DNA of 7,569 nt. Source: a virus (Duplodnaviria; Heunggongvirae; Uroviricota; Caudoviricetes). Positions 1-7,569 of the stretch are shown one piece after another. The notes under the pieces are model-generated. The model did not search any database and had not been told where the DNA came from. It worked only from the letters and a program-made list of their open reading frames with translations. The stretch lies in IMG/VR virus record IMGVR_UViG_2657244940_000004; one strand, written 5' to 3'. Every line of letters starts with the position of its first letter. Within the stretch, counting starts at the first letter, position 1. The position numbers and the translations under genes were made by a program.

Positions 1-494
1 ATAAACATCCCGTAGGCATGGCCTGGTGACAGTGGAATAACTTTGAACATCTCTGTCGCCGGGATACCTTCCAGTACAGGCCAGAAAGAGCCATCATCAA
101 GCCCGAGATCGCGACGTTCGGTTGCCAGCATAATGAGATCGGCATATTTCACAGGCGTGCTCATAACAGGAGGTAACCCGTATTTCTCACGGATTACGGC
201 GTCTATTTTTTCTTCCATCCGTTTATAGTCAGGAAGAAGGCGTTTCAGTGGAGCTGGGATGTCCTGGCAATACGCTTCTGTTGCATCATGCATTAACGCT
301 TCAAAAGCAAATTCCTGCGGTACCAGCTGGCTGCAAAGCACCGCATGTTGGGCGACGCTGTAGAAGTGTGAAAGATGTCCTGCAAAGCGACAGATATTTG
401 AAAGGGAAACCGCGATATCGTTAATCACGATGTCGTCTTTATTTATCCTGTCATAATAAAAATGCTTCCCGGAAAAAGTTTTAATAAATGACAT
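1..494 (-). CDS. yfdR: HD-domain phosphohydrolase, YfdR-like (5'-deoxynucleotidase family); C-terminus lies outside the window
   Basis: Minus-strand translation from ATG (complement of 492-494) reads MSFIKTFSGKHFYYDRINKDDIVINDIAVSLSNICRFAGHLSHFYSVAQHAVLCSQLVPQEFAFEALMHDATEAYCQDIP... with no stop to position 1 (164 codons). It carries the H...HD metal-binding signature (GHLSH, LMHDATEAY) of the HD superfamily. GGAG lies 8 nt upstream of the ATG (rc of 503-506). Not in the ORF track because it runs off the edge. Symbol is from recall of the E. coli CPS-53 prophage protein, not a search. Confidence 0.8.
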   Translation of the reverse strand, partial: MSFIKTFSGKHFYYDRINKDDIVINDIAVSLSNICRFAGHLSHFYSVAQHAVLCSQLVPQEFAFEALMHDATEAYCQDIPAPLKRLLPDYKRMEEKIDAVIREKYGLPPVMSTPVKYADLIMLATERRDLGLDDGSFWPVLEGIPATEMFKVIPLSPGHAYGMF

Positions 495-588
495 TTTGTT
501 CTCCACTTTATATGCGCTGCACCGCGCTGAATTTTGGTTAAAGAAAACCCTCGCCATCAGGCGATTATTGAGTCAATTATGTTTCCAT

Positions 589-610
589 AAATGCCCCCGC
601 AGGGGCATTT
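589..610 (-). terminator. Perfect 9-bp stem hairpin (AAATGCCCC-CGCA-GGGGCATTT) between the yfdQ-like stop and the yfdR-like start; possible intrinsic terminator or attenuator
   Basis: Perfect inverted repeat 589-597 / 602-610 with a 4-nt loop, 13 nt downstream of the yfdQ-like stop on the minus strand. The following minus-strand sequence is only moderately U-rich (AUUUAUGGAAACAUAAUU), so this is not a canonical terminator. Confidence 0.35.
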
Positions 611-622
611 GCAGTAATGAAA

Positions 623-1447
623 TCAGGCGGTGAAAGTACCAATAAAGGTTTCTACTTTGCTGTCTTTAAATTTCTCAACAAGCAGATCACGAAATTCGTT
701 AGCCATTTCTTCCTGCACTGCTTCCAGCTGAATAATGCGCAGAACCAGTACAGGACGATCGCCAGTGATAATGCTGAGGCGTAATTTAAACGGACGTTCT
801 TTCAGGCCTTCAAACGGAACGCATTTAAATTCAAATACCACTGGCATAATGTCTTTGGTCTTCGCTTCGACAGACTCCATCAGGGAGCGTTTGCCGCTGA
901 AGTCATTATCTTCAAAATCAGCGGTCTGGTTTGCTTCAATCGTGATTTTACGGACTGCCGCAGCCGCTTTTGTTGCCTTAATAGCGTCACCATTAGCATC
1001 AAAGCCCACAAGATAGTCGGCCCAGTCTTCAATCCATTCTGCCAGTGACTTCTGGGAGTTACGCTCGCCGTTAACAGACAACAGAGCAGAGAACGGTGCT
1101 GTCTTTTTCAGTTTGAGTGTGGCGGTGTTATCTGCGTGACCTGGTTCACCAATAGTACCCAGGTTAAGCACACTGACGGCACGCATATTATCGGCATCGA
1201 TAAAGCAGCGGGTGCCTTCATCTGCAAGATCTTTAGAATAACGGGTAAAGTCATCGATGCTGGCAGTGGAAAGCGCACCACGGAAACGGAAGCGATTTAA
1301 ATTAAATTTTTCCAGATCATGAATGCGGAAATTCTCAGGCAATGCCACAGCATCGGCACCAATCTTACTGATAATTTCATTAACACCCTGAGCAGAAATA
1401 AGGGCATGGATTTGATTAATTGCGGTTGCGTCTAAGTTCTGAGACAT
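623..1447 (-). CDS. yfdQ: YfdQ-like prophage protein (DUF2303-type), 274 aa, function unknown
   Basis: 274-aa ORF with protein-like composition. GAGGA sits 6 nt upstream of the ATG (rc of 1448-1465). Length and N-terminus match my recollection of the E. coli CPS-53 YfdQ family. Sits between the yfdP-like and yfdR-like genes on the same strand. Confidence 0.85.
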
Positions 1448-3081: not shown

Positions 3082-3279
3082 ATGCGGAAATCCGACGTGA
3101 TTAATTATTTCGGCGGAGTTTGTAAAACCGCCGAAGCCCTAGGTATTAAGCATCCGTCTGTTTCAGAGTGGCCTGAGATTATTCCTGAAGGCCGAGCGTA
3201 CCAGTTAGAAAAAATTACTAACGGGAAACTGAAAGTTGACGTGTCTTTATATCAAAAGACTAACAGTGCTGCGGCATAA
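3082..3279 (+). CDS. cro: Cro-like repressor, P22 Cro family (65 aa)
   Basis: MRKSDVINYFGGVCKTAEALGIKHPSVSEWPEIIPEGRAYQLEKITNGKLKV aligns with recalled P22 Cro (MYKKDVIDHFGTQRAVAKALGISDAAVSQWKEVIPEKDAYRLEIVTAGALKY). GGGAG sits 6 nt upstream of the ATG. The gene is divergent from the repressor and immediately downstream of PR. Confidence 0.85.
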   Translation: MRKSDVINYFGGVCKTAEALGIKHPSVSEWPEIIPEGRAYQLEKITNGKLKVDVSLYQKTNSAAA

Positions 3280-3306: not shown

Positions 3307-3885
3307 GTGGGTAAAGAACCTGAATGGAAAGTTGATAAACAACCAGCATGGCTGGTGGCAGCAATACGAAGAACGATTGCTGATTTACCTCATGGCTATG
3401 AGGAAGCAGCAGAAATTCTTGGTTTGTATAAATCTGATGATATCACCCCAGCAAAAGATCAATTGCATAACAGACTGCGTAGCGGTGGGGATCAAATTTT
3501 TCCACTTGAGTGGGCCATGGTTTTACAGGATGCCAGTGGTACCAGGCATGTAACAGATGCAATAGCCCGTCGTAGTAATGGGGTGTTTGTGCCGCTGGTG
3601 GTCATTGATGACATTGACAATGGTGACATTAATCAGCGGCTGATGGAGTCAATAGAATGGATTGGCAAGCATTCCCAGTACTTACGCAAGGCAACTGCTG
3701 ATGGAGTTATTGACCAAGCTGAACGCGAGCAGATCGAAGAGAACAGCTACCAAGTAATGGCGAAGTGGCAGGAGCATTTGACACTGTTATTTCGTGTTTT
3801 TTGTGCGCCGGAAAAGAGTAACGCCCGCGAGTGTGCAGCTCCGGGCGCCGTGGCGTGTCGTGACTGTGGAGAAACTAACGCATGA
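3307..3885 (+). CDS. Hypothetical early-right protein (192 aa); by position it could be a cII-type lysogeny regulator, unverified
   Basis: GTG start with GAGGA 8 nt upstream. Protein-like composition with acidic patches and a Cys-containing C-terminal tail (CAAPGAVACRDCGETNA). The stop overlaps the next ATG (ATGA at 3882-3885). I do not recognise a family from memory. Confidence 0.65.
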   Translation: MGKEPEWKVDKQPAWLVAAIRRTIADLPHGYEEAAEILGLYKSDDITPAKDQLHNRLRSGGDQIFPLEWAMVLQDASGTRHVTDAIARRSNGVFVPLVVIDDIDNGDINQRLMESIEWIGKHSQYLRKATADGVIDQAEREQIEENSYQVMAKWQEHLTLLFRVFCAPEKSNARECAAPGAVACRDCGETNA

Positions 3886-4484
3886 ACAGTTTAACGGCAA
3901 ATAACCGTTTGTCGCAACAGCTGGTGGTCAGTGTCGCTGCACACCTGTTGTTACGGCATGAATGCAGATTACCAAATCACCTGGCTGTAAGTAACCACAG
4001 AGAACTTTACCTGACTGTGGGGGGCGAGTTGTGCAGGAACTTAACCGCTGGTTTCGTGACGGAAGAGGACTTTATGTTCATGTTATTCGTTGGGAGCCAG
4101 AAACACAGCGCGTTATCTATCTTCGCAAAGACTACCAGCATGAGTGCTTTAGTCCTTTGTGGAAATTCAGGCGTGATTTTGTTGAGTGTGAAGGACCACC
4201 AGCATATTGATTCTGCAATTCCGGGACGTTACACTGCTCAGGCACCTTATAAAGCGGGTGCCGGGGGTCGCAGCCCGGAATTGTCAACGGCGATATATGA
4301 CGCGCCAGCGTCTTTTTTATCGTCCGCGCTCACGCACGCCAGAATTATGGTGGGCTGGGCAGGGGAGCCGAAAGGCTCGCCGGTCTCCGTTGACGCCGGT
4401 ACTGCGAACCCTGTTCAGTCTGCCACCAGTGAGTTTCGCAGCTCCGGTGGTGGAAGTTTTCCACAGTCAACGGAGGCTGCCATC

Positions 4485-5030
4485 ATGGCTACGATCCCAA
4501 CCCTCACTCAACCTGAAATTGCCATCGTTGATGGTCAGGCTGTTACTTCATCCCTGGCTGTTGCCAACTTCTTCTCCAAACGTCATGACGATGTACTGAA
4601 AAAGATCCGCACGCTTGAATGCTCTGCATCATTCACTTCCCGCAATTTTTCGGTGAGTGATTACACCGATTGCACAGGCCGCAAACTACCTTGCTATCAA
4701 ATAACCCGCGACGGCTTTGCGTTTCTTGCTATGGGTTTCACGGGTAAACGTGCTGCCCAGTTCAAAGAGGCATACATCAATGCCTTTAACCAGATGGAGA
4801 AACAGCTTTCAAATCCCTCTGTACTGAGCGACGTTGCACATAACGCCAGCGTTCTCTATTCCTACATTTCATCAATTCATCAGGTCTGGCTGCAGCAGCT
4901 TTATCCCATGTTGGCAAAAGCCGAATCCCCGCTGGCTGTAAGTCTGTATGACCGCATCAACGACGCGGCGCTACTGGCCAGTCTCATAAATTTGTCGCTG
5001 AACCCTTCAGAGGTAAGGGGGCGCAAATGA
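4485..5030 (+). CDS. rha: Rha-family phage regulatory protein (pRha domain), 181 aa from an internal start; the same frame is open upstream to 3882
   Basis: MATIPTLTQPEIAIVDGQAVTSSLAVANFFSKRHDDVLKKIRTLECSASF...YQITRDGFAFLAMGFTGKRAAQFKEAYINAFNQMEKQL matches the Rha signature (VTSS..VA..F.KRH..VL..I, TRDGF..L.MGFTGK.A..FKEAYI..FN.ME) recalled for this family. GGAGG sits 8 nt upstream of the ATG at 4485. The track ORF (3882..5030, 382 aa) would add 201 N-terminal codons of atypical composition. Confidence 0.85.
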   Translation: MATIPTLTQPEIAIVDGQAVTSSLAVANFFSKRHDDVLKKIRTLECSASFTSRNFSVSDYTDCTGRKLPCYQITRDGFAFLAMGFTGKRAAQFKEAYINAFNQMEKQLSNPSVLSDVAHNASVLYSYISSIHQVWLQQLYPMLAKAESPLAVSLYDRINDAALLASLINLSLNPSEVRGRK

Positions 5031-5251
5031 TCCGGAATATTTTCAAACGGTTTACCAATCATACTTTCCGTTGTCCTCGTCCGGGTCAGTGGTACACCAC
5101 GCCTGCAGGGCATGTTCTACGTGTTAGCCTGGTTGACCGTGAATGTCAGAAGGTGGTTTGTGAACCGCTGGGCCGTAATTACCGCGTCAGTATGCCGCTT
5201 ATAGCCTTTTGCTCCGGAAAAATGTTTAAGCGTCTGGGAGGTGTGGCGTGA
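5027..5251 (+). CDS. Small hypothetical protein (74 aa), start overlapping the rha stop
   Basis: The ATG at 5027-5029 overlaps the rha stop TGA at 5028-5030. A G-rich SD-like run (AAGGGGG) lies about 6 nt upstream. The product contains several Cys (FRCPRPG, CQKVVCEP, FCSG). No family recognised. Confidence 0.45.
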   Translation: MIRNIFKRFTNHTFRCPRPGQWYTTPAGHVLRVSLVDRECQKVVCEPLGRNYRVSMPLIAFCSGKMFKRLGGVA

Positions 5252-5472
5252 ACTGTTTTCAGGTTCGGTCATGAAAAAGTAACATATTCTATGCTGGAAC
5301 AGACCAATTTTGCATTCGCCGTCCAGGAGTTTGAGGGGAAAGTAGTCAGTGTTTACGCTCAGTCAGGGAAAGTGTGCAATGATAAACAACACGAAAGGAA
5401 TCGTAGTACATGGGCACCGCGATTCAATATTCAAGGAAAACACAATACAGCAATGTACTTGTACTGTTTCTA

Positions 5473-5754
5473 TTATTCTGGCGATTTCAATAAAGGCACT
5501 TGCTCGCGCTCTGTCATTTTCTGAAACTCTTCATGCTGCATTTCGATTTTCCTTCTAAGATCATAACTCGCATACCTGTTCTTTTTATGTATATCTATAT
5601 CTATTTTTGTGACGAGTTCAAACCACAATGTTCGCACTCCCCAGGCAGCGTTATGAAACATTTCCGCAACGGCTATAGAGTCTGTATTAACTGCTTCGGT
5701 CATGTAGTCGCTAATACGTTCAGCGGTAATTTTCGTTATTTCATCGTAATTCAT
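5473..5754 (-). CDS. Hypothetical protein (93 aa) in a low-GC segment; orphan cargo gene
   Basis: GGAGA sits 5 nt upstream of the ATG (rc of 5755-5770: GTAGGAGATAAA-ATG). Product has balanced composition ([47 protein letters not shown]...). The surrounding 5500-5860 is visibly AT-rich compared with the window. A 105-bp AT-rich gap separates it from the upstream toxin gene. Confidence 0.6.
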
Positions 5755-5859
5755 TTTATCTCCTACAAGATTATTTAATGGAATGAAAAATATCTGGCCT
5801 GATAATAATATTCCAGAATTAATATCTGCAGGCTATGTTAAGTTGTCCCCACACACAAT

Positions 5860-6135
5860 CTACCTGTTTTCTCGTGTGTGCCACAGGCGCAATACATAAA
5901 TAGTCTGGCCATTAAGTTCGTAACGGATTTCGTACTCGCCAGCAAAAATCCGTCTGACCTCCCTGGGTTCAAACTGAAACAACTGTTCTCCCATACGTGG
6001 ATGAGTTAACAGAATGACCGGTGCCTGTGTCAGGGATTGCACCGTTCTGGCGGCCGCAGGTTTACTGGCCAGCACCAGAAAATCATATAACCGCGCCAAA
6101 TCAGAAAGCGCCTTACTGGTCCACTTCAGTTCCAT
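5860..6135 (-). CDS. Type II toxin, ParE/RelE superfamily (91 aa)
   Basis: MELKWTSKALSDLARLYDFL...GEYEIRYELNGQTIYVLRLWHTRE follows the ParE/RelE fold pattern (N-terminal helices, C-terminal Y.I.Y......I.RV.H.R). Its ATG overlaps the stop of the upstream RHH gene (TGATG on the minus strand at 6133-6137). Confidence 0.85.
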   Translation of the reverse strand: MELKWTSKALSDLARLYDFLVLASKPAAARTVQSLTQAPVILLTHPRMGEQLFQFEPREVRRIFAGEYEIRYELNGQTIYVLRLWHTRENR

Positions 6136-6419
6136 CAGCGTGGCACCGGTAACGGATTGTCAGTACTGAGGCTGTCCGCCCAGGCCTGTACAGCCTGATG
6201 GTCGATAACCTGTCCGGATGTCACATCGTCCAGGGCTTCCAGCGTCAGGCGATTACGCTCCTCCTCCTGGGCAAGCCATGCAGAAAGCGCCTGTTTGATA
6301 ACCCAGCCCCGGGAGCGTTCCAGCCTGGCGGCCATCTGGTCGACTTTATCAGCCATAGGTAATGGCACATGCGCGGTAATGACTTTTGTTGCTTGTGCGG
6401 TATTGTTTTTCATTTGCAT
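6135..6419 (-). CDS. Type II antitoxin, ribbon-helix-helix (CopG/ParD-like), 94 aa
   Basis: Ribbon-helix-helix signature in VITAHVPLPMADKVDQMAARLERSRGWVIKQALSAWL, followed by an acidic C-terminal region typical of toxin-neutralising tails. Sits upstream of and overlapping the toxin. An alternative start at the third codon (ATG rc of 6411-6413) is possible. Confidence 0.8.
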   Translation of the reverse strand: MQMKNNTAQATKVITAHVPLPMADKVDQMAARLERSRGWVIKQALSAWLAQEEERNRLTLEALDDVTSGQVIDHQAVQAWADSLSTDNPLPVPR

Positions 6420-6432
6420 ATCCGATTAGTCG

Positions 6433-6474
6433 TTAATCATATTTAATCATAGTGATTACTTTCAGACGGAACAA
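6433..6474 (-). promoter_or_regulatory. Putative promoter and autoregulatory operator of the toxin-antitoxin operon
   Basis: Minus strand: -35 TTGTTC (rc of 6469-6474), 17-nt spacer, -10 TATGAT (rc of 6446-6451). A second TATGAT lies 10 bp downstream (rc of 6436-6441), forming a direct repeat TGATTAAATATGATTAA over the -10 region, the sort of site an RHH antitoxin would bind. Confidence 0.35.
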
Positions 6475-7321
6475 GGCAAATAATGCGCGTCAGCGCATGT
6501 AAGGCGGCATACGGTGGTTACATGTAGCACAGGTGTGAAACCGCCGAAGCCCGGCGTAAGCCGGTACATATTGATAGATTTCACCTTACCCATCCCCAGC
6601 CCTGCTAAGCCATACCCGCTTTCAGCCATGACAGAGCTTCTGTGCGCGGTCGGAGTGGTCCCGACGAGGGTTTACCCGAAGTCGGGGCGTATCTCCGCGT
6701 TAGCGGGCCGTCAGGGCCGCTTACGAGCGTGTACTCGATACGTCCAGCCAGAAGACTGGCAGCGATGACAATGTAGTTACAACATTCATAATTAAAAGCG
6801 ATGTTGTTCCCGCCCTTTGGGCGGGGGCGGCCTCGCTTTTCAGTTATGAGGGGTGGGCACGGTGCTGCGTTTGTGTGGTGTTTTTATTCCTGATGTCTTT
6901 TTGCTGTGGTTTCAGAACGGTGAGGTTCGGGGCCCGCGCGTCAGCGTGGGAGGTGCATATCAGTCTGTCCACAGGACAGGCATTGAACAGGTTTTCTTTT
7001 TAAATGGAAGTAATTAAGTAGTTTAAAGGAAATACAGTACTGGAGTTTAAAAGAAACATTGCACCCTGTAACGCCTGCGGCTGGCGCTTTATAGCATTAA
7101 CGGTTGTAACCTTATGGAGAAGTCCCTTGCAGTTAAATGTGGATAAACAGAATTACCCGTCTGTGAGACGTGTTTTGCGTGAAAAACAGGGGGAGCATGA
7201 TGAGCCGGAAGGCAGATGATGAGGCTGTTTTTTGTGTGCTGTGCTGCTTTTTTGTGCGTCGCCGGGCTTCAGACGTGCGGAAGCCTCCGGCGCAGGCCGG
7301 ATTATTCAGATGAGGTCAAAC

Positions 7322-7569
7322 TCAGGGTGAGGCAGTGGCCAGCCGTGTGTAGTTGTTGTTCCGCGACATTATCATTCGTTCCTTCACGCGACGGTCGATT
7401 TCGCGCTTCACGGCCTCCAGGCTTCCGCGGAAACGCCCTTCCGCGATTTCACGTGTCAGCTGCCGTTTCACCAGGGTGACAATGTCCTGACGGGTCCTGC
7501 CTGCATCGCGGCGCGCACGGGCACGTTTCATGCCGTGGGACTTAAGCTCTGCCTGATAACTGCGGAAAC
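7322..7569 (-). CDS. Basic protein of unknown function, partial; frame open to the window edge, N-terminus may lie outside
   Basis: Minus-strand frame is open from the window edge to the stop at 7322 (...FRSYQAELKSHGMKRARARRDAGRTRQDIVTLVKRQLTREIAEGRFRGSLEAVKREIDRRVKERMIMSRNNNYTRLATASP). The internal Met at 7531 has no SD. Arg/Lys-rich and helical-looking, suggesting nucleic-acid binding. A 5-bp hairpin (7287-7300) follows the stop. No family recognised. Confidence 0.45.
   Translation of the reverse strand, partial: FRSYQAELKSHGMKRARARRDAGRTRQDIVTLVKRQLTREIAEGRFRGSLEAVKREIDRRVKERMIMSRNNNYTRLATASP

Follow-up and report, generated by a model that had tools for sequence, protein, structure and literature searches.

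The window analysed here, a DNA stretch of 7,569 nucleotides from a virus of the class Caudoviricetes (IMG/VR record IMGVR_UViG_2657244940_000004), contains on its plus strand a long open reading frame (ORF), 3882..5030, whose 3' part encodes a Rha-family regulator. The frame was confirmed to be open for 382 aa, with 201 sense codons ahead of an internal ATG at 4485. A preliminary description, made from the letters alone, had offered three readings of these codons: an unusual Rha with a novel N-terminal domain, a separate element (an RNA, or a gene with a non-canonical start) on which a stop-free frame is maintained, or a recent fusion. The following features lie at the locus.

3307..3885, plus strand: YmfL-family/CII-like early gene, 192 aa (PF06892, phrog_101; 'YmfL family' in the Prokaryotic Genome Annotation Pipeline, PGAP)
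3882..4030, plus strand: 149 nt moving with the 3' end of ymfL (similarity to e14)
4031..4210, plus strand: DUF4222 gene, 59 aa, GTG start, in a frame other than the long one (Pfam, PHROG, PGAP and the ratio of nonsynonymous to synonymous polymorphism, pN/pS)
4208..4236, plus strand: predicted sigma-70 promoter, −35 TTGATT at 4208-4213, 17-nt spacer, −10 TACACT at 4231-4236 (homology)
4242..4318, plus strand: IsrK-type small RNA (sRNA) with a1 at 4268-4273 and b1 at 4283-4290 (Rfam RF01394)
4343..4430, plus strand: C4-type antisense RNA, mature form ~4349-4425 by homology to P1 c4 (Rfam RF01695)
4347..4484, plus strand: orf45-like leader of 46 codons from the C4 5' AUG to the rha ATG, in frame with rha and without a stop (homology to Gifsy-1)
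4435..4441, plus strand: target a2, TTCGCAG (complementarity to a')
4466..4475, plus strand: target b2, GTCAACGGAG (10-nt complementarity to the C4 loop)
4485..5030, plus strand: rha, 181-aa Rha-family regulator (PF09669)

The observations from which the preliminary description started hold. The ATG at 3882-3884 overlaps the TGA of the 192-aa ORF 3307..3885 (ATGA), the internal ATG 4485 is preceded by a Shine-Dalgarno (SD) sequence, GGAGG, at 4472-4476, and the translated stretch 3882-4484 (GC 0.526) is indeed rich in Ser, Ala, Gly and Leu (43% together) and poor in charged residues (13.9% Asp, Glu, Lys and Arg, where ~12% had been given). Likewise, a stop-free frame of 603 nt is unlikely by chance (P = 6.5e-4, first-order Markov resampling). 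Taken by segment, the chance probabilities are 0.11 for 3882-4030, 0.04-0.08 for the shadow frame of DUF4222 and 0.12 for 4212-4484; over the RNA genes a stop-free reading is found in two forward frames out of three, and 4207..4599 is open too. Most of the improbability of the frame is inherited in blocks common to relatives.

The separate-element reading proved apt in both its halves, as the stretch holds two RNA genes, isrK and C4, as well as a GTG-started DUF4222 gene in another frame. Judged by sequence, the locus belongs to both Rfam families, C4 and isrK, and all the defining features that can be tested in this way are present. The IsrK-type RNA scores 58.7 bits with RF01394, the isrK Hfq-binding RNA (gathering cut-off, GA, 50), and includes an intrinsic terminator (stem 4299-4312, then a T-run), and the C4 RNA scores 78.8 bits with RF01695 (GA 45) over the full model, 1-87. 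Both were found at the same place in 13 out of 13 homologous loci tested. The predicted promoter, with a transcription start site (TSS) inferred at 4242, is kept in every homologous module and aligns with the P1c4 (P51b) promoter as annotated in P1, as well as with PLE of P4; a strict consensus promoter scan of 3700-4600 called no promoter and found the IsrK terminator. The left boundary of the module is placed near 4204 because the sequence upstream of the −35 element diverges between contexts. The leader of P1 matches the C4 and c4-a1b1 models and gives a sub-threshold match to isrK, so IsrK is best regarded as a homologue of the P1 a1/b1 leader. In P4, seqA has been equated with IsrK and CI with C4 (PMC3632133), the equivalence of seqA and IsrK also being drawn in PMC4825925.

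The C4 RNA carries two antisense elements, b' in the loop of hairpin 2 (CTCCGTTGAC, 4385-4394) and a' in the junction (CTGCGAA, 4402-4408). Element b' pairs with b1 (GTCAACGG, 4283-4290) and with b2 (GTCAACGGAG, 4466-4475), and a' pairs with a1 (TCGCAG, 4268-4273) and with a2 (TTCGCAG, 4435-4441). Target b2 overlaps the rha SD (4472-4476) and ends 9 nt ahead of ATG 4485 (10 nt in P1). In an alignment of 50 distinct leader sequences (A1), all helices together are 96.6% paired, versus 37-45% in slid controls. Pairing is complete (100%) in the outer stem as well as in hairpin A, and each of the two has 4 pairs altered on both sides. The antisense pairings covary in the same manner: b'-b2 is 96.6% paired with 7 of 10 pairs altered on both sides, a'-a2 98.6% (4 of 7), b1-b' 99.2% (7 of 8) and a1-a' 100% (4 of 6). 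At least five 'a' and at least seven 'b' alleles occur in A1, recombined (window 4266-4292, 4383-4410 and 4433-4477), while ATGGCTAC and the SD are invariant. The SD and the first five codons of the cargo (MAT.P) are part of the conserved module, and the 5' context UUAUGG and the 3' end CCACC(A) of C4 are conserved. The leader 4242-4500 folds at z = −5.7, in a structure with cis pairing of the C4 loop to b2, and so to the SD, and of the junction to a2. A complement of the loop lies 7-12 nt ahead of an ATG in 101 distinct C4 modules from many bacterial genera; the C4 pattern scan of genome contigs gave mostly chance matches in GC-rich genomes, and an outer-stem filter was needed. The records of F004, a phage of a large Shiga toxin 2 (Stx2) lineage, and of APSE-7 annotate these RNAs, and there the cargo gene starts after b2.

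Selection on the frame was analysed in 40 distinct homologues of 81-100% identity, in an alignment that is ungapped except for one 6-nt deletion. Variable sites at long-frame codon positions 1/2/3 were distributed as follows.

3882-4030: 11/15/14
4031-4210: 7/15/6
isrK: 10/10/6
C4: 9/9/13
4431-4484: 9/8/7

The long frame shows no codon periodicity in these 40 homologues. The sole excess falls on its second position in 4031-4210, which is the third codon position of DUF4222. By the Nei-Gojobori method, pN/pS over 4031-4210 is 0.16-0.32 in the DUF4222 frame versus about 1-1.9 in the long frame, and over 4209-4484 it is 0.8-0.96 in all three frames; the orf45-like leader, 4347-4484, gives 0.57-0.66. 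An AlphaFold2 prediction of residues 1-201 from the single sequence reached a predicted local distance difference test score (pLDDT) of 32.5 with no residue above 50, a result that shows only the lack of a confident fold. Since there is no periodicity, pN/pS is about 0.8-1.9 and the pLDDT is 32.5, the long frame upstream of 4485 is without protein-level constraint.

DUF4222, on the other hand, is a genuine gene, in a frame other than the long one. Its product matches PF13973 (E = 1.1e-13, 51 bits versus a cut-off of 27) and, over its full length, phrog_1343 (E = 7e-36), and a G-run SD (4019-4024) stands 6 nt ahead of the GTG at 4031. PGAP calls the coding sequence (CDS) in a CPS-53/KpLE1-type prophage of E. 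coli that is 99.7% identical. Variable sites concentrate at its third codon position, both here (7/15/6) and in e14 (9/23/9). Mosaic breakpoints lie at 4032, 4204 and 4430; the first falls precisely at the start of the gene, the codon at which homology of Stx1 phages to the window begins. Residues 50-110 of the long frame are thus an out-of-frame shadow of DUF4222. A programmed frameshift from the preceding 149-nt stretch into DUF4222 was considered and set aside, the gene having its own SD and start codon (GTG here, TTG in e14).

The first reading of the preliminary description, that Rha has two domains, the N-terminal one being novel or 'Ash', ~200 residues long and translated from ATG 3882 or, as PGAP annotates, 4140, has to be weighed against these results. 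It draws on a clear profile match: residues 117-212 of the long frame (window 4230-4517) score 64.6 bits with Pfam PF10554, Phage_ASH, versus a cut-off of 26. PHROG families of long 'transcriptional regulators' include the stretch as well, and long CDSs are annotated in SfV, sal3, Stx1 phages and RefSeq. However, positions 1-48 of the ASH profile map to isrK and positions 49-94 to C4 with a2 and b2. The same coincidence is seen in P4, where the Rfam C4 match (8420-8507, minus strand) lies inside the old CDS for a 'cI gene product (137 aa)' (L449, 8168-8584, minus strand), and this 'cI' ORF matches the ASH profile with E = 4e-16. The P4 immunity factor CI is an RNA (PMC4825925, PMC3632133). Because the profile coincides with RNA genes both here and in P4, 'Ash' is most plausibly what results when RNA genes, or at most an orf45-type leader, are conceptually translated. 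A real Ash protein domain was accordingly rejected, with neither purifying selection nor any pLDDT of 50 to speak for it. A match of residues 1-201 to a known domain, which the preliminary description had envisaged, was therefore found in letter and not in the sense intended. Further points stand against a two-domain Rha: annotated starts disagree, and the same leader precedes unrelated cargo (a 77-aa protein in SfV, Bro-N in APSE, icd in P1 and kil in P4). With no third-position bias or low pN/pS in the long frame, we regard this reading as highly improbable.

The 5' end of the long frame, 3882-4030, calls for separate treatment. The ATG at 3882 has an SD, GGAG, at 3868-3871, and the e14 prophage is 81% identical to the window at the nucleotide level across the end of ymfL and this ATG, the similarity being gone ~25 nt past it. 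The start of e14 ymfM is the homologue of ATG 3882 by position, local sequence, GGAG and the ATGA overlap with a YmfL-family gene, and both ymfM and the long frame overlie a nested DUF4222 ORF. Unlike the long frame, ymfM ends at the window equivalent of 4188, with no isrK, C4 or rha beyond, and its first ~50 codons are periodic (variable sites 2/4/13), whereas the window-type stretch is not (4/8/4). For the 149 nt as a whole, pN/pS is 0.5, which is not significant, with variable sites at 11/15/14; no signal of RNA structure was obtained in 3882-4035 (z = +0.23). In one homologue (L158), a 1-nt deletion at 4026 parts ATG 3882 from the rest of the frame.

An observation on e14 itself may be added here. 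Its ymfM (L086 3323-3661; NC_000913 1203822-1204160) contains the nested DUF4222 ORF out of frame; this ORF starts at a TTG preceded by AAGGAG. Where the two overlap, DUF4222 is the constrained frame (9/23/9), and constraint in the frame of ymfM is limited to its first ~50 codons (2/4/13). YmfM is reportedly an SOS-inducible division inhibitor, and the published filamentation work is said to have cloned the whole ymfM ORF without frame-specific controls. The phenotype can therefore not be assigned to either YmfM or the DUF4222 product, and the nested ORF raises the question of which product underlies it.

We then come to whether the frame is kept open. Homologues seeded by tblastn are biased to intact frames, so the frame test was redone on loci found by a DNA pattern blind to the reading frame. 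The tblastn-seeded set keeps the frame open in 40 out of 40 sequences, and of the 40 distinct window-type sequences in the DNA-pattern sample, 39 have it open from 3882 onward. Most homologues thus carry the extension, as the preliminary description had proposed to check. The stops or indels upstream of 4485 that it had named as counter-evidence do exist, but in a minority (F004 and L158), and the phase from the TSS to the start is open in 49 of the 50 leaders of A1.

Stop positions within A1 localize the effect. Between the TSS and the start there are 2 in phase, both in F004, versus 16 and 12 in the other phases. Between the C4 AUG (4347) and the start there are 0 versus 9 and 6, a difference with a probability of ~0.002 if the phases are equivalent, while in the IsrK part of A1 the avoidance (2 versus about 11 positions) is not significant. 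Stop avoidance is therefore limited to 4347-4484. The two in-phase stops of F004 lie in isrK and come from its a1 allele, TTAGGA, and only 33 and 30 nt are open ahead of the cargo start in P1 and APSE-7, respectively. When sequences are clustered at 85%, 19 clusters have no stop in the C4 AUG phase on either side of the AUG; for the other phases the numbers are 9 and 6. In the enteric classes d=136, d=138 and d=128 this phase remains open irrespective of its relation to the cargo start, which it joins in frame in the window class (28/28), overlaps as AUGA in the Gifsy-like class (5/6) and overlaps by a few bases in the third enteric class (8/9). Family-wide, the C4 AUG is in frame with the cargo start no more often than by chance (12/13/8), and all three C4 phases can be open, in different alleles. 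In Gifsy-1, orf45 is translated and required for translation of anrP, and its amino-acid sequence is not conserved (PMC4825925).

These data bear directly on an accidental origin, namely a recent in-frame join of stop-free mosaic blocks with no selection, even on 4347-4484. Such a join would be eased by the two frames of three that are open over the RNA genes and by the openness of every C4 phase in some allele; segment probabilities of 0.04-0.12 are not extreme, the breakpoints at 4032, 4204 and 4430 mark the blocks, and nearly indel-free alignments would let frames persist passively. Yet a Salmonella phage has the frame too, at 81% identity, and hence it is not recent; the 'recent fusion' of the preliminary description finds no support as worded, since the open frame is old, being common to homologues of 81-100% identity. 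The 0 versus 15 polymorphic stop positions from the C4 AUG to the start, as well as the open AUG phase of the three enteric classes, also argue against accident, which we consider quite improbable.

Taken together, the results make it probable, in our judgement, that the stop-free frame overlies several independent elements that control a 181-aa Rha, and is not a domain of Rha. The proposed order is the YmfL-family gene, the stretch 3882-4030, DUF4222 from its GTG at 4031, and the IsrK-C4 module. The promoter at 4208-4236 would start transcripts at ~4242, most of which would end at the IsrK terminator to give a short IsrK RNA (4242-4318), while read-through transcripts would carry C4 (4343-4430), a2, b2 and rha. 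By its b' and a' elements C4 may pair with b2 and a2, in cis when unprocessed or in trans after excision, for which P1 uses RNase P. As the SD of rha lies within reach of b2, which covers it, pairing would block translation from ATG 4485, and, if P1 and P4 are a guide, the untranslated RNA would then be prone to Rho termination. With its copies of the targets, a1 and b1, IsrK could titrate C4 and switch rha on. Excised C4 acting in trans would set immunity specificity. Transcription, processing and the trans action of C4 and IsrK are all proposed here from analogy with these systems. Of the long frame upstream of rha, codons 4347-4484, the equivalent of orf45, are likely the only part to be translated, and this at times. 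The mature c4 of P1 begins at the G of the corresponding AUG, so that C4 processing would be expected to destroy the start at 4347.

Several findings weigh against this account. It gives the stretch 3882-4030 no role, and we infer an antirepressor function of Rha from position and family. Moreover, the frame is open from 3882 in nearly all pattern-sampled sequences and from the TSS in nearly all leaders, as given above. Start-stop overlaps of the first start (ATGA, GTGA, TTGA or TAATG) with varied upstream genes occur in ~15 of 35 contexts, and in five further contexts there is an in-frame fusion over ~900 nt. In one locus (L034) a single 598-aa ORF runs across two tandem modules, and in another (L344) a complete upstream Rha gene is stop-free into the module. 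The ATGA links, these two loci and the general openness suggest that more than 4347-4484 could be translated.

The same facts are what a bridging cistron would predict. In that case the long frame, or its portion running from an upstream-coupled start across the promoter, IsrK and C4, would be translated on read-through transcripts of the early operon (PR-type), with its amino-acid sequence irrelevant; ribosomes coupled through the ATGA would cross the IsrK terminator and C4 into rha, and the effect would be to suppress the intrinsic terminator and Rho polarity, or to make an N-extended Rha free of the C4 block. The 19 clusters (versus 9 and 6) with a stop-free C4 AUG phase fit as well, and Gifsy-1 orf45 shows that part of the phase is translated (PMC4825925). 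If true, this would be an unusual selection for the passage of ribosomes over two RNA genes. Against it, amino-acid constraint is lacking (pN/pS 0.8-0.96 over 4209-4484), stop avoidance is significant between the C4 AUG and the start only (0 versus 15), F004 has two stops in isrK, P1 and APSE-7 are without such a frame, and the deletion in L158 cuts the link to ATG 3882. In addition, the contexts lack independence, and several long extensions on the upstream side resemble a translated antisense strand of a gene on the opposite strand. On balance, we hold a bridging cistron to be unlikely, and retain independent elements controlling Rha as the preferred account.

Within that account, rha most likely yields a 181-aa protein that starts at ATG 4485 and may now and then carry an in-frame leader extension of 46 residues from 4347. 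The domain match (PF09669, Phage_pRha, E = 4.5e-31) covers aa 21-106 counted from ATG 4485, close to the N-terminus, equal to aa 222-307 of the long frame, and the F004 homologue is annotated from the equivalent ATG with the domain in the identical position. That b2 covers the SD of this ATG argues that 4485 is the regulated start. The cargo after b2 varies as follows.

Window and Stx2 phage F004: Rha
SfV: 77-aa protein
APSE-7: Bro-N protein
P1: icd, then ant
P4: kil

PGAP starts the Rha CDS at ATG 4140, inside DUF4222, in one RefSeq E. coli prophage (L084 4141-5031; window 4140-5030), and in a 97%-identical genome (L085 1797-2537; window ~4290-5030) it calls Rha an N-terminally truncated pseudogene; neither isrK nor C4 is annotated in either record. 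Our results explain the long 'Rha/Ash' or 'Ant' calls made by gene callers, PGAP, PHROGs and Pfam, which are found in many E. coli, Shigella and Salmonella prophages, Stx phages included, and which miss the true start and the regulators. The extension in these calls is what a promoter, two regulatory RNA genes and a small gene in another frame give when translated. The RNA specificities, at least 5 × 7, are predicted heteroimmunity types.

Some observations made alongside concern related modules. Judging from the combinatorial reassortment of a and b alleles between prophages, heteroimmune RNA specificities may be numerous in prophages of E. coli, Shigella and Salmonella. Isolated examples of isrK-C4-cargo modules in tandem, two per prophage and differing in specificity, are L034 (2861-3049 and 3512-3697), L075, L386 and L387. 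In L342, L350, L423 and L387, the Ash phase is open for ~300 codons upstream of isrK (900-1000 nt), antisense of an apparent gene on the opposite strand, which may be coincidence or may point to selection for openness.

As to the neighbourhood in the window, the 192-aa YmfL-family gene adjoins a Cro-like gene and a divergent LexA-family (S24) repressor. Downstream, a 74-aa gene (5027..5251, plus strand) overlaps the rha stop, again as ATGA. It matches phrog_1153 (E = 4e-44), as does, weakly, the 59-aa DUF4222 product; as a distant DUF4222-like paralogue it would place DUF4222-like genes on both sides of the RNA module. Homology with the closest E. coli prophages stops near 5265, after which replication-type, PerC, methyltransferase and RusA genes follow in those prophages. 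In the window, a ParE-family toxin gene (5860-6135, minus strand; PF05016, E = 8e-17) overlaps a ribbon-helix-helix antitoxin gene (6135-6419, minus strand; PF01402), forming a type II pair. The right third (~5266-7569), with this toxin-antitoxin pair, is a different mosaic, so the prophage may be rearranged or defective. At 451-631 (minus strand), beside a yfdQ-like DUF2303 gene, there is a sub-threshold match to the sRNA STnc100 (23.4 bits versus GA 47, E = 0.067).

An 'IsrK-C4 immunity system' of P4, P1, P7, N15 and lambdoid prophages is already present in the literature (PMC3632133), and the locus can be compared with its members. The immI region of P1/P7 (P51 promoters, a1 b1, c4, a2 b2, icd, ant1/ant2) has the same order with nearly the same spacings. 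In P1 the annotated layout is P1c4 −10 at 3218-3223, a1 at 3255, b1 at 3269, c4 at 3343-3419, a2 at 3423, b2 at 3452-3459 and the icd ATG at 3470. The C4 RNAs match the same Rfam model, and both systems have b2 placed across the SD that serves the first cargo gene. They differ in the a/b specificity sequences and in the cargo, since Rha comes first here and icd is absent, whereas P1 has icd (its product without a Pfam match) and then a KilAC-type Ant (PF03374). For want of icd and of a KilAC Ant, the locus is not a strict P1 operon. Furthermore, the window module is embedded in a lambdoid-type early operon instead of standing alone, P1 is without the long in-phase frame (33 nt), and a C1-controlled operator was not identified here, no search for operators having been made.

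The isrK-orf45-anrP locus of Gifsy-1 (STnc1160; PMC4825925) resembles the window in its terminated IsrK, in the read-through to a C4-like processed RNA, in a leader ORF whose AUG lies ~106-107 nt from the TSS and is followed by an antirepressor-like gene, and in the complementarity of IsrK to the downstream RNA. There, IsrK has been shown to switch anrP on (PMC4825925). Unlike the 46 codons that run here in frame into rha with no stop, orf45 ends by an AUGA overlap with anrP.

P4 (PLE, seqA, CI RNA/seqB, seqC, kil) shares the Rfam isrK and C4 matches in the same order, a cargo start with the leader sequence ...EAAIMAT... and the in-phase arrangement; its region, too, was once annotated as a protein, the 137-aa 'cI' that matches Pfam ASH. 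It differs in that the system is used for transcription termination of the replication operon. The cargo of P4, kil/eta according to the literature, is also different from that of the window. To the IsrK-C4 family known from P1, P4 and Gifsy-1, the locus adds an example with Rha as cargo, embedded in a lambdoid-type operon.

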